Part shown: piece after piece, positions 5,912 to 18,971 of the stretch
How positions within the stretch are numbered: position 1 is the first letter of the stretch
Layout: each line of letters begins with the position of its first letter
Virus record (IMG/VR): IMGVR_UViG_3300025115_000041
Location: 1 to 29,875 of that record
Origin: a virus
Taxonomy: Duplodnaviria > Caudoviricetes
Length of the DNA stretch: 29,875 nucleotides
Direction: 5' to 3' (one strand)
The notes under the pieces: model-generated
Database searches by the model: none
What the model saw: only the letters and a program-made list of their open reading frames with translations
What the model was told of the DNA's origin: nothing
Program-made: the position numbers and the translations under genes

Positions 5912-5956
5912 CACCATCAATACCCGACAAATGTGAGTGGGCTTTACAAATAGTTG

Positions 5957-5985
5957 TTGACATGGCGTGTAAGTGGGCTTAACAT
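5957..5985 (+). promoter_or_regulatory. Sigma70 early promoter P1
   Basis: TTGACA-17 bp-TAACAT with GTAAG-tggg-CTTAA palindrome overlapping the -10. Confidence 0.8.
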
Positions 5986-6005
5986 GGGAACCGTAGTGAT
6001 TGATA

Positions 6006-6025
6006 ACGCCCTAACGGGTCTTTTA
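6006..6025 (+). promoter_or_regulatory. Leader motif copy 1 (tetraloop hairpin plus boxA-like TCTTTTA)
   Basis: ACG-CCC-TAAC-GGG-TCTTTTA; second copy at 7684. Confidence 0.5.
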
Positions 6026-6038
6026 AGGAGAAACAGAA

Positions 6039-6626
6039 ATGTCCAAGCAATATCTCTCTTGTGCCGAAACCGCCAAACTGGTTCGTGCGGCTCTCAAGGA
6101 ATCTTTTCCTGGCGTTAAGTTCAGCGTTCGTTCTAGCGTGTACGCCGGTGGCGCCAGCATCAACATCGAATACACCGACGGCCCCAGCGCCAGCCAAGTC
6201 GAAGGCATCGCCAAGGCATTCCAGGGCGCATACTTTGACGGAATGACCGATTACAAAGGCCGCAACTACAACACCCTGGACGGCGAACAAGTCAGGTTCG
6301 GTGCTGACTTCATTTTTGTAAAACGCAACTTCACCGCGCCAACTTTGACTGGCATCGTTGTTCAGGTCTGCAATTACTACGGTTTCGACAACGAAATTTT
6401 GATCGACGCTGGCGGCCAATATTTTGGCGCATACGTCAAAGAAGTTGGCCCCAACGCCGACAGCGAAGCCCGCGGGTTCAGCAAGTACGACATTGAACGT
6501 TTGATCCGCGAAGCGGCTGGCAAGTACAGCATGGATGACGCAGCCGAAAGCAAAACCTTGGCCCGCGTTGCCTTCCTGGGCGACGACGGTTACGGCTACG
6601 GCGCTGTTGGCCGGATTGCTGCGTAA
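6039..6626 (+). CDS. LPD29 (large polyvalent protein-associated domain 29) protein
   Basis: TAKLVRAALK.SFPGVKFSVRS..Y.GG.SI.I.YTDGP...V......FQG..FDGMTD motif; TAAGGAG RBS. Confidence 0.82.
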   Translation: MSKQYLSCAETAKLVRAALKESFPGVKFSVRSSVYAGGASINIEYTDGPSASQVEGIAKAFQGAYFDGMTDYKGRNYNTLDGEQVRFGADFIFVKRNFTAPTLTGIVVQVCNYYGFDNEILIDAGGQYFGAYVKEVGPNADSEARGFSKYDIERLIREAAGKYSMDDAAESKTLARVAFLGDDGYGYGAVGRIAA

Positions 6627-6636
6627 GGGGGGCGCC

Positions 6637-6735
6637 ATGGACAAGGAACCAAGTGATTTGCAAGTCCTGTTGATGGTGCTGGTCATCGCGCCCATCCTGT
6701 ACGTGTTGCTTTACATCGCCATGGCGATTTTTTGA
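6637..6735 (+). CDS. Small single-pass membrane protein (32 aa)
   Basis: MDKEPSDLQVLLMVLVIAPILYVLLYIAMAIF; G-rich RBS. Confidence 0.65.
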   Translation: MDKEPSDLQVLLMVLVIAPILYVLLYIAMAIF

Positions 6736-6748
6736 AAGGGGTGTGGAA

Positions 6749-6931
6749 ATGTTTGCAGATAAGTATGAATTAGAAACCTGGGCAGGGCCGTCAATGGCCA
6801 CCATCAGGGCAAGGCAGCGGGCTGCGTGTGGCGGCGGCTGCAAGTGTGGAAAGTTGCGCGATCCCGTCACCAAGTCCAACGGGGTTCGCACCTGGCTGTC
6901 GTGTTTGCGGTGCCTTGGCACCATCGCCTAG
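6749..6931 (+). CDS. Small Cys-rich (zinc-ribbon-like) protein, 3' end altered by cassette insertion
   Basis: CGGGCKC...CLRC; its stop TAG lies inside the attC spacer. Confidence 0.6.
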   Translation: MFADKYELETWAGPSMATIRARQRAACGGGCKCGKLRDPVTKSNGVRTWLSCLRCLGTIA

Positions 6932-6973
6932 CTCACCGGCGCCGAAGGCGTCCGGTGCAGCGCAGTGTTAGGC
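6919..6973 (-). repeat. attC site of cassette B (55 bp) with a non-canonical R' (G|ATGGTG)
   Basis: R'' GCCTAAC, spacer ACTGC, L'' GCTGCACC, GGACGCC-TTC-GGCGCC, L' GGTGAGC, spacer TAGGC, then GATGGTG; two extrahelical bases on the L'' arm. Confidence 0.85.
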
Positions 6974-6994
6974 GTCAAGTTGAACGGAGGTTAT

Positions 6995-7225
6995 ATGGAC
7001 ACAAACAGACGATGGACACAGTTCGCAGCCGATGCCGAGGTTGACAGATTCGGCACCGCAAGACTATGCGCTGCGCACAACAGTCTGCGCGATGAAGTCG
7101 AAAAGCTGCGCAGGGTCGCCGAAGCCGCTGCGCGCTCTGTGACGCAGCCCGCATGGGCCGGAGTGTGCGACGAGGACATTGAACTGGAGTCCGCGTTGCG
7201 GGCGGCTGGGCTTCTTGACGCCTAA
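6995..7225 (+). CDS. Cassette B hypothetical protein (76 aa)
   Basis: GGAGG RBS at 6986; stop TAA is part of the core site GCCTAAC. Confidence 0.75.
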   Translation: MDTNRRWTQFAADAEVDRFGTARLCAAHNSLRDEVEKLRRVAEAAARSVTQPAWAGVCDEDIELESALRAAGLLDA

Positions 7226-7282
7226 CGCAGAGCTAAGGGGCCGGCCGCTTGCGGACGGTCCCGCTTAAGCGCCGGGTTAGGC
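7220..7282 (-). repeat. attC site of cassette A (63 bp), complete
   Basis: R'' GCCTAAC, spacer CCGGC, L'' GCTTAAGC, GGGACCGTCCGC-AA-GCGGCCGGCC, L' CCTTAGC, spacer TCTGC, R' GTTAGGC. Confidence 0.92.
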
Positions 7283-7296
7283 GCGGAGGATTGATG

Positions 7297-7680
7297 ATGG
7301 AACTAGGCGCAATAGAGGAAGTGAAAGAGATTGCCAGGCAGATCGAATGTCGGCTGATACCGCCACCGAACAAGGCGCAGTCACTGGTAATTATTCGACA
7401 GATGATCCGCATGGCAGAAAAGATCGAGTCGCTTGAAGCCAAGCTATTCCATGCCGAAGCGGAGCGCGACGAAAACCGCGCCGAGATTGGCAGGCTGCGC
7501 GACGAACTGCAAAGGATCGCTGACCCGATGAGTTTCCGGCACGAAGGGACAAGCCTTTCGTTGTGCCGGAAATACGAGGACATAGCGGCAGACGCTTTGC
7601 GAAAAGTCGGCTCTGACAAGACGGCAGATGTAGCGCCTAACAGACAGTTGACAGATAGCGTCAAGGGGGCTTACAATTAA
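7297..7680 (+). CDS. Cassette A hypothetical coiled-coil protein; reads out of the cassette into phage DNA
   Basis: GGAGGA RBS at 7285 next to attC R''; central heptad-rich segment; no stop before the 7640/7641 junction. Confidence 0.75.
   Translation: MELGAIEEVKEIARQIECRLIPPPNKAQSLVIIRQMIRMAEKIESLEAKLFHAEAERDENRAEIGRLRDELQRIADPMSFRHEGTSLSLCRKYEDIAADALRKVGSDKTADVAPNRQLTDSVKGAYN
7635..7653 (-). other. Array-proximal crossover site with attI/attG-like simple-site geometry
   Basis: TGTCAAC-TGTCT-G|TTAGGC (AAC-N5-GTT) with no attC hairpin upstream. Confidence 0.6.
7648..7677 (+). promoter_or_regulatory. Sigma70 early promoter P2
   Basis: TTGACA-18 bp-TACAAT with TCAAG-gggg-CTTAC palindrome overlapping the -10. 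Confidence 0.75.
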
Positions 7681-7683
7681 ATC

Positions 7684-7703
7684 ACGCCGGAAACGGTCTT
7701 TTA
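7684..7703 (+). promoter_or_regulatory. Leader motif copy 2
   Basis: ACG-CCG-GAAA-CGG-TCTTTTA. Confidence 0.5.
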
Positions 7704-7718
7704 CGGAAGGAAATTGAA

Positions 7719-7886
7719 ATGGAAAATCAAGCACTCATTCCCAACGCTGACTGGCAAACTCAGCAACGCGGAACCAACGACCAGGAATATCAAATCTACC
7801 TGGCTTGCGCTGACAACGGCAAAGGCGGCGACATTACTCGCAACGGCGCCCCCCTTTTGACTTACGACCAATGGGTGGCAGCATGA
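7719..7886 (+). CDS. Hypothetical protein (55 aa, absent from the ORF track)
   Basis: MENQALIPNADWQTQQRGTNDQEYQIYLACADNGKGGDITRNGAPLLTYDQWVAA; GAAGGA RBS; ATGA overlap with the next gene. Confidence 0.75.
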   Translation: MENQALIPNADWQTQQRGTNDQEYQIYLACADNGKGGDITRNGAPLLTYDQWVAA

Positions 7887-8050
7887 AAGTAAAACTTGTC
7901 AGCGTACCTGGGCCACAGGCCCAGGCGACCAAAGCGCCCAGCATCCTGGACAAACGATTTAAATACATACCGGCGGCCAAGACCGACATAGTGCAACGTT
8001 TTCGCGCTATGGGCTGGGTTCCACCGTCAGAAAAGCGGGGGGGCTACTGA
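7883..8050 (+). CDS. Hypothetical protein (55 aa, absent from the ORF track)
   Basis: MKVKLVSVPGPQ...FKYIPAAKTDIVQRFRAMGWVPPSEKRGGY; coupled start; ends 1 nt before the ERF ORF. Confidence 0.7.
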   Translation: MKVKLVSVPGPQAQATKAPSILDKRFKYIPAAKTDIVQRFRAMGWVPPSEKRGGY

Positions 8051-8051
8051 C

Positions 8052-8705
8052 ATGACCCAACAACAACATTACGAAACCATGCAACGTCAAGAGGAGTATG
8101 AGGAAATGACAACGTTCAACAAAGTCGCTGCGGCCTTGGTCAAGGCCCAAAAAGAATTCGGCCCTGCGCTGAAATCCAGCACCAACCCGCATTTCAAATC
8201 ACGCTACGCCGACCTGGCCGCGTGTGTTGAAGCGGTGGTGGACGCTCTCAACAACAACGGCATCGCGTTGACGCAGCGCGTCAGCCCGTCCGACAGCGGC
8301 GTGATCGTCGAAACCGTGTTTATTCACGAATCCGGCGAAATCATCAATTGCGGCCAGTTGCACGTACCGGCCACCAAACAGGACGCCCAGGGTTACGGAT
8401 CAGCGTTGACATACGCCCGCCGTTACTCGTTGATGGCCGCCTGTGGTATTGCACCGGAAGACGACGACGGCAACGCAGCCACAAAACGCCCGTCAGCGCC
8501 AGCGCAGCCTATTCCTGATATTACGGATCATCTGTCAGCCATTGATGGTGCCGCCAATAGCGACGAATTAACCAAGGTGTATGCCGCGGCCTACGACGCT
8601 TGCCAGGGCAATCAGCAACTTCAGGCCAAAGTGATTGCAGCCAAGAAAGCCCGCATTGAACGCGCCAAGAAAGAAAAACAATCGAAAGGAACCACAAATG
8701 AGTGA
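8052..8705 (+). CDS. erf: ERF-family ssDNA annealing protein
   Basis: NPHFKSRYADL, HESGE and GSALTYARRYSL..ACGIAPEDDDG motifs; alternative start at 8106. Confidence 0.93.
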   Translation: MTQQQHYETMQRQEEYEEMTTFNKVAAALVKAQKEFGPALKSSTNPHFKSRYADLAACVEAVVDALNNNGIALTQRVSPSDSGVIVETVFIHESGEIINCGQLHVPATKQDAQGYGSALTYARRYSLMAACGIAPEDDDGNAATKRPSAPAQPIPDITDHLSAIDGAANSDELTKVYAAAYDACQGNQQLQAKVIAAKKARIERAKKEKQSKGTTNE

Positions 8706-9324
8706 CATGGAACAACGCACCGACGACTGGTACGCGGCCCGCCTGGGCAAAGTCACGGCCAGCAGCCTGTACAAAGTCCTAGCCAAGACCAAGACCGGCT
8801 ACGGTGCCGACCGCGGCAATTACATGACCCAACTGGTGTTGGAACTCGTGACCCAATCTAAGGCCGATTCCTACACCAACGCGGCCATGCAATGGGGCAT
8901 CGACCAGGAACCATTTGCCAGGGCAGCCTATGAAGCCGCCAAGGGCGTTTTGGTAGAGGAAGTGGCGTTCGTACAGCACCCGACCATCGCCATGGCTGGT
9001 GCCTCGCCTGACGGCTTGGTGGGCGACGACGGCATGGTGGAAATCAAATGCCCCGACAGCAAGACAGCCTTGGAATGCTGGCTGTCCGACAGCCCCGTGG
9101 AAGGCAAGTATTTCGCGCAAATGCAATGGCAAATGCGCTGCGCCGACCGCGCCTGGTGCGACTACGTTGTATTCGACCCGCGGATGCCCGCCAAGGCCCA
9201 ACTGTTTGTCACCCGCGTTCAGCGTGACAACGAATGGTTGGCCATCACGGAAGCGGAAGTCGTCAAGTTTTTGGCTGAAGTCGATGCCAAGGTCGCAGCA
9301 CTCAAAAAAATCATCGGAGAATAA
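8698..9324 (+). CDS. YqaJ/lambda-exonuclease family protein
   Basis: QRTDDWYAARLGKVTAS, MQWG..QE, GASPDGL, EIKCP and QMQWQM motifs; AAAGGA RBS. Confidence 0.93.
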   Translation: MSDMEQRTDDWYAARLGKVTASSLYKVLAKTKTGYGADRGNYMTQLVLELVTQSKADSYTNAAMQWGIDQEPFARAAYEAAKGVLVEEVAFVQHPTIAMAGASPDGLVGDDGMVEIKCPDSKTALECWLSDSPVEGKYFAQMQWQMRCADRAWCDYVVFDPRMPAKAQLFVTRVQRDNEWLAITEAEVVKFLAEVDAKVAALKKIIGE

Positions 9325-18423: not shown

Positions 18424-18927
18424 TCAAGCCCCTTCGCGCAATCTGTTACGGCGAAGCAAAGATTCAATAGTGTTTCGTTTATTGTTCATGTTCACTGCTA
18501 TTTGTCTTGCCGTTTGTCCTGATTTTCGCATTTGCAAAACCTGTTGGATTTCATCATTGGTGAATACCGATTTATGATGATTTTCGCCCGTTGGTAATTT
18601 TCTGCGTCCTTTTTTTACACAATCTTCATTGTTTGTCTTTATGTCGGCAACACGCAAATGCGCTGGATTGCAGCAGATTCGGTTGTCGCATAAGTGCATC
18701 AAAAATCCTTTTGCTCGTTTGTTTGCTGGCGCTCTAAGTTCAATCTGACCAGGATTGGCTAAGTTGAAAATTACCCGATGCGCGTAATAAGCAACATCAT
18801 TGATCCAAGTTCGCCCGTATCCTGATTTAGTCAAATGTCCTTTCCATGGCCAACATTCCTGTTCACTTCTTACTTCTACCTTGCTCCACAACACTTCCGG
18901 CGTATTTGCTGGTCTTCCTGCTTTCAT
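18424..18927 (-). CDS. Free-standing HNH homing endonuclease
   Basis: CWPWKG..GYG..YAHRV..HLCDNRICCNPAHL..N..D plus C-terminal HTH; visibly AT-richer than neighbours; start could be 18960. Confidence 0.88.
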   Translation of the reverse strand: MKAGRPANTPEVLWSKVEVRSEQECWPWKGHLTKSGYGRTWINDVAYYAHRVIFNLANPGQIELRAPANKRAKGFLMHLCDNRICCNPAHLRVADIKTNNEDCVKKGRRKLPTGENHHKSVFTNDEIQQVLQMRKSGQTARQIAVNMNNKRNTIESLLRRNRLREGA

Positions 18928-18971
18928 TTGGCGGCCCTCATAAAGCCACCATTCTATCATTACTATAAAAC

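Follow-up and report, generated by a model that had tools for sequence, protein, structure and literature searches.

An integrase-free array of two integron cassettes, most likely inserted into a phage gene by an integron integrase acting in trans

The phage record analyzed here carries a real two-cassette array of integron attC sites without an integrase gene (CALIN), which was most likely founded by insertion in trans by an integron integrase (IntI) at a G|AT site within a phage gene. The window, i.e., the whole stretch of 29,875 nucleotides that was analyzed, is a linear, 88% complete virus contig of which roughly 4.8 kb are missing, between the two window ends. The insert covers 716 bp on the minus strand (6925..7640) and consists of cassette B (6925-7225, 301 bp) and cassette A (7226-7640, 415 bp). 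It interrupts ORF C (6749..6931, plus strand), whose product is 97% identical to that of the relative L099, where it is 71 aa long.

Both attC sites lie on the minus strand and show the imperfect palindrome R''-spacer-L''...L'-spacer-R' with the conserved AAC and G|TT, the latter being G|AT in the site of cassette B. The attC of cassette A (site A, 7220..7282, crossover at 7226) is composed of R'' (7282-7276), a 5-nt spacer, an 8-nt L'' (7270-7263) and a hairpin, followed on the other arm by a 7-nt L' (7238-7232), a 5-nt spacer and R' (GTTAGGC, 7226-7220). The attC of cassette B (site B, 6919..6973, fold z about -2.9 to -3.1) has the same anatomy, except that its R' is a hybrid, G|ATGGTG (6925-6919), instead of GTTRRRY. 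The bases past the G belong to the phage target: R' is of the GTT type in 219 of the 221 other phage attC sites, which identifies the GAT of site B as target-derived, and the site would regain G|TT in the circular cassette. An initial sequence-only reading of the window had described the arms and spacers of both sites correctly, but had left this non-canonical downstream core unstated. That site B represents a normal core with a 7-bp deletion was ruled out, both because 5 of 221 sites do have TAGGC as their spacer and by the empty site described below.

A covariance model of 70 attC sites from cellular-genome loci (structure check, 89% of cells paired), chosen by our own detector, gave 61.8 bits for site A (E about 2e-12), a score that is partly built in because 25 of the 70 training sites are of its L'' type, and 31.1 bits for site B (E about 2e-5), which is thus the fairer test. 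The plus strand of site A scored 15.8 bits, and no other part of the 29,875 bases exceeded 11.0 bits; the E-values are rough. Hence the two minus-strand attC sites proposed from the letters alone are real, and the suggested covariance-model search yielded a CALIN-type result, i.e., two attC sites on the same strand, 247 bp apart by our model, with no integron integrase nearby in the 88% complete record. Rfam held no relevant family for the window. As also claimed at the outset, an unpaired extrahelical base sits on L'' in both sites, T in site A and G in site B (top strand). The usual extrahelical base is C (210 of the 221 other phage attC sites); the base is described as directing strand choice, its identity not being essential (Bouvier 2009, PMC2727003). 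We infer that the bottom (plus) strand of these sites would be the one recombined by IntI.

The own-end complementarities typical of the proposed cassettes are exact, 13 bp for cassette B (6967-6979 with 7214-7226) and 9 bp for cassette A (7276-7284 with 7633-7641). Cross pairings in the window (start of A with R'' of B, start of B with R'' of A) reach 8 bp, so that the 9 bp of cassette A, one base longer, are weak alone and the 13 bp of cassette B are strong. In 85 of 165 other phage cassettes the own ends pair over at least 9 bp; of 1638 cross pairings, 18 were that long and none extended to 13 bp. Own-end pairing alone does not reveal polarity. The hairpin of site A recurs at 14 viral loci, where its neighbours vary, and in 14 stretches of genomes, two of which have IntI genes beside it (451 and 480 bits, cut-off 265). 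Chromosomal integrons of betaproteobacteria (L116, Rhodocyclaceae; L117, Methylotenera) contain the identical 35-nt attC hairpin. The exact hairpin of site B had no viral match, and its arm begins at 6925 with a different flank in sequencing run X5.

Evidence for insertion by IntI comes from the empty site. Relatives of ORF C occur in 10 viral loci, and the insert was absent from all nine inspected. L099, L100 and L104 are colinear with the window, position 6924 being joined directly to 7641, and the same applies to L101 and L102 with 3 bp less; this colinearity defines the insert as 6925-7640. Insertion was accompanied by neither duplication nor loss, the sole ambiguity being one shared base, the core G. 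ORF C lost 11 residues and received its stop from the attC spacer. It ends with ...CLGTIKQLTTNVKRTYN in L099 and stops at CLGTIA in the window, and the tail RQLTDSVKGAYN of ORF A, on the other side of the insert, matches the C-terminus that ORF C has in L099 and L100. On the minus strand the crossover reads G|AT, also in L099, and AAT in L100 and L104. G|AT conforms to the GWT consensus of attG sites, which spans -1 to +2 around the crossover and is cleaved between positions -1 and +1; the motif CRGM at +6..+9 is absent and replaced by GCCA, but is described as a mark of hotspots and not of all attG sites (Loot et al., 10.1101/2022.09.11.507474). Taken together, the G|AT triplet and the exact junction fit IntI insertion outside attI.

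The right junction forms an attI-like simple site on the minus strand (7635..7653), consisting of TGTCAAC (7653-7647), 5 nt and G|TTAGGC. Read on the other strand, TGTCAAC is a G followed by the -35 hexamer of a predicted sigma-70 promoter (TTGACA-18-TACAAT, 7648..7677, plus strand, 11/12 consensus match), which belongs to the phage backbone downstream of the cassettes. The lone third core noted earlier at 7641 is present, but it is an insertion scar adjoining this -35 box; that it is a truncated attC was ruled out, as the sequence from 7641 onward is backbone in the relatives. The junction TGTCAAC-N5-G is one base from sites at the attI position in betaproteobacterial integrons and matches 6/7 L-box bases. 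Among 18 intI-adjacent loci, TGTCTAC-N5-GTT is at the presumed attI position in seven, two have closely similar versions, and the remaining loci are different or yielded no call. The window has 2127 GWT triplets, of which only 2, including the one at 7641, differ from this arrangement by at most one mismatch. The -35 box probably acts as a mimic of the attI L box, judged post hoc from the sequence of one case; the promoter has 14 distinct copies in relatives, one of which has GWT at the mimic spacing. Figure S8 of Loot et al. reportedly shows a left-hand motif, which may bear on the -35 mimic. The ends of the arrays L161, L165, L136, L011, L146 and L132 show a GGTGTC...N5-GTT motif, and the resemblance of such starts in many phage arrays to bacterial intI-side sites suggests a retained attI.

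Two cassettes at one point and a junction that now reads AAC-N5-GTT, like a simple site, could also indicate that 7641 is a maintained attI-like platform where this phage family routinely gains or shuffles early genes. We consider this doubtful. None of four relatives searched whole contained an attC site, while a control phage gave 11, and no site scoring at least 26 was detected in 16 relative loci (102,896 bases); accordingly, the gain looks like a one-off event and not like the product of a standing shuffling platform. A scan for a second cassette insertion at a filled promoter or -35 box gave six matches, none with attC, and the junction sequence is explained as a promoter. The minus strand beside it holds no promoter-like site pointing into the array. 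The original proposal that the phage acquires or shuffles early genes using a host integrase in trans thus stands for the integron-type cassettes, their movement as units and the lack of an own integrase, but not for routine shuffling, given the attC-free relatives and the location of the array in a freshly split gene.

A further route into the phage would bypass IntI at the site. Genes for ERF (8052-8705) and YqaJ (8698-9324), both on the plus strand, are located 400 bp downstream, the region is highly mosaic among relatives, and a 7-bp 'GCGTCAAG'-like word is present at the end of cassette B and in the promoter, all of which would be compatible with homologous or microhomology recombination with a cassette-bearing phage. 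However, only a single base is common to the junctions and the empty site, the junctions coincide exactly with the IntI crossover and a GWT triplet, and both flanks match the backbone of the relatives, which makes such an origin of the block very unlikely.

Insertion by IntI at the G|AT site requires a source of the enzyme. No match to tyrosine recombinases (PF00589) was found in the 88% complete record, in line with the initial reading that the window has no integrase, or in five relatives, of which three are complete; the record thus lacks the intI gene of a complete integron, and action in trans is the best reading. Viral records with full IntI genes beside arrays of reversed cassettes do exist (L132:2899-3903, 479 bits; L147:3695-4681, 464 bits). 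As both are of the same attC class, the enzyme may come from the host or from another phage, which weakens the earlier attribution to the host. These two records and the linear, incomplete contig leave room for an own integrase in the roughly 4.8 kb that are missing, yet we give this little credence in view of the three complete relatives without a tyrosine recombinase and of the position of the missing part far from the array; intI normally adjoins its cassettes. Least probable of all is that the repeated attC produced a chimeric assembly. Unitigs of run X1, the probable source run, do break at site A, with depth rising from 19 to 71, but single X1 contigs cross each outer junction (6000-7253; 7255-8700) and a contig from run X2 of another study (6810-7058) crosses the left one with no differences, such that the A-B adjacency alone depends on the original assembly.

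In the scenario of insertion in trans, IntI would be supplied by the host chromosome or by a co-resident integron-bearing phage, and would act on a circular cassette whose plus (bottom) strand is folded, recombining this strand with phage DNA at the non-attI G|AT. This target was probably favoured by L-box mimicry, as G+TTGACA of the promoter lies five bases from the crossover and, in reverse complement, would resemble the attI L box. Insertion on the minus strand would leave ORFs B and A, which are reversed relative to attC, in line with rightward phage transcription, and would regenerate a GTT core at 7641 that is open to more cassettes; cassette A might have followed B, or both might have entered as one circle. 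Counting against this scenario are the 11 of 18 intI-adjacent loci without TGTCTAC, the absent CRGM hotspot and the record being only 88% complete.

Expression of the cassette genes is predicted to start upstream of the array, at a sigma-70 promoter (5957..5985, plus strand, 10/12 consensus match) that is divergent from a Cro-like gene and would transcribe ORFs C, B and A. Four sigma-70 promoters were predicted in the window, compared with 0.9 expected. The phage is podovirus-like according to Pfam, with a P22-type coat protein, the Cro-like gene and a rightward run of LPD29 (6039-6626, plus strand), ERF and YqaJ genes, which we interpret as an early operon from the gene layout. At both 5940-6025 and 7648-7703, the predicted promoter has a GTAAG/TCAAG-N3-CTTAC-like box in its spacer that is conserved in relatives, and just 3' a short hairpin with CTTTT behind it is likewise kept, likely representing an operator and a transcription signal. 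Elsewhere in the window, a phage gene near the left end (1586-2515) encodes a Zeta_toxin-family P-loop domain (E 3e-11), and an HNH/His-Me endonuclease gene (18424-18960) lies in a low-GC patch amid structural genes. Cultured phages gave weak ERF/YqaJ matches only (7 records). Relatives of the coat protein are scattered over inconsistent MAG bins, and isolate matches (43-60%) are Burkholderiaceae. The distribution of the attC sites makes a betaproteobacterium the likely host.

ORF B (76 aa, 6995..7225, plus strand) is preceded by GGAGG (6986-6990) and ends with a TAA within the core at 7220. ORF A (128 aa, 7294..7680, plus strand) has no stop of its own but reads through the core, 13 codons past 7641, into the former C-terminus of ORF C. 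Each unit does hold one ORF, as initially noted, albeit ORF A does not terminate inside its cassette. Breakpoints among homologues of the same ORFs fall at the cores, as expected from the proposal of mobile cassettes. ORF A is 94% identical to P0002 up to 'APN', followed by a different tail, which in P0002 appears from its sequence to be the translation of another attC arm. ORF B has six homologues with 72-80% identity, five of which share 'PN' at the core position before continuing into unrelated tails. In addition, one contig of run X1 exits the end of cassette A exactly at 7641 into another attC-like arm. The units hence move as gene cassettes do, with boundaries at the core crossover. The attC's bottom strand (7227-7270) also provides an in-frame stop to ORFs that read through the core, which gives rise to the tail PNAELRGRPLADGPA that recurs in many phage proteins.

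The first 79 bp of cassette A (attC, ribosome-binding site and start; 97%) and its last 41 bp (88%) recur in a cassette of the L116 integron and of the viral L159, with an ORF that gave no alignment to ORF A. Joint inheritance of the upstream attC and the far end in L116 and L159 independently fixes the assignment of site A to ORF A. It also suggests, from this one sequence comparison, that a gene might be replaced inside a common cassette frame. The cassette cargo has no Pfam or PHROG family, its PADLOC matches were only at E 0.001-0.009, and its Atlas neighbours are all hypothetical; ORF B in particular was assigned to none of the families of Pfam, PHROG or PADLOC. Viral contigs contained no relative of ORF A, and none of ten partial ORF B matches is directly flanked by a detectable attC. 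An excision joint was not seen in contigs of 8 of the 24 listed runs, but contigs drop rare variants and absence is not demonstrable from them. DNA methyltransferase-like and RNA ligase-like genes are recurrent cargo of other reversed phage cassettes (L006, L007, L008, L123, L134, L145, L166).

Canonical cassettes are coding sequences ended by their own attC (Loot et al., 10.1101/2022.09.11.507474). Here, both ORFs are encoded on the attC bottom strand with the attC upstream, instead of a top-strand ORF with the attC behind it, and this antisense polarity was missed in the sequence-only reading. Canonical plus-strand polarity was ruled out by the strand scores of the covariance model and by the co-inheritance of the upstream attC, and is also contradicted by the junctions at 6925 and 7641, not 6967. 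We counted polarity with an attC pattern that is blind to ORF direction and gene calls by our own scoring, the genome scan covering 19 of 64 parts. Of 45 distinct viral sites, 40 were reversed and none canonical (three unclear, two with short flanks), whereas 125 cellular sites comprised 59 canonical and seven reversed ones (eight unclear, 51 with short flanks). The reversed fraction of callable sites is thus 40/40 in viruses and 7/66 in cells, a difference whose Fisher p of 2e-22 overstates the significance, since the viral sites, with 38 distinct ORF starts, cannot count as independent. Among the cellular sites called "reversed", at least one (L234) is an intI gene. Six of 11 reversed ORFs tested from the bacterial arrays L114-L117 and L121 match PHROG families. 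The bacterial integrons L116:1186-4738 (Rhodocyclaceae) and L117:1318-4984 (Methylotenera) have arrays of apparently mostly reversed ORFs; three ORFs of L117 match PHROG families, one of them a DNA methyltransferase.

Phage CALINs, with two or more attC sites in a 3-kb stretch and no intI, are known already, as is their competence for IntI1, given that five phage attC sites were recombined with attI1 (Qi et al. 2023, PMC9892861). The array described here is likewise a multi-attC phage array without intI, but its ORFs are reversed in comparison with TJE1, whose attC1 and attC2 are canonical and which is called typical together with PH101. As the route of entry, that account suggests off-target homologous or illegitimate recombination; the empty/filled pair presented here points to IntI insertion. 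Also known is attG insertion, described together with SALINs and small CALINs (Loot et al., 10.1101/2022.09.11.507474), which shares with our case the GWT crossover outside attI, the precise, gene-disrupting insertion and possible expression from a nearby promoter. It differs from that description in that the target is a phage and not a chromosome, CRGM is missing and an attI-L-like AAC box is 5 nt from the crossover. Compared to betaproteobacterial integrons, of which that of L116 contains the cassette with both ends common to cassette A, the phage array has neither intI nor Pc, and 59 of 66 callable cellular sites in the wider attC class are canonical. Full-text literature searches, whose coverage leaves most subscription journals outside, listed no paper with systematic reversed polarity in phages or a -35/attI mimic in its title or opening lines, and reversed phage polarity is absent from the portions consulted of Cury 2016, PMC8946536, PMC13676570 and 10.64898/2026.09.14.751636.

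It is tempting, but for now speculative, to propose that phages and betaproteobacterial integrons share a separate pool of reverse-polarity cassettes suited to phage transcription that are silent from Pc in bacterial arrays and expressed in phage operons, that swap genes in a common frame and that seed arrays at sigma-70 -35/attI mimics, with the window representing an array in the process of being founded. The frame swap in this proposal derives from the 79-bp and 41-bp ends that cassette A, L116 and L159 share around unrelated ORFs, and bears on how cassettes form. That viral and cellular sites belonging to a single attC class are split almost completely by polarity implies a pool of cassettes adapted to phages. 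Irrespective of such a pool, the interrupted ORF C and its intact relatives provide a natural before/after pair for the birth of integrase-free arrays in phages, for which the published account offers illegitimate recombination only.
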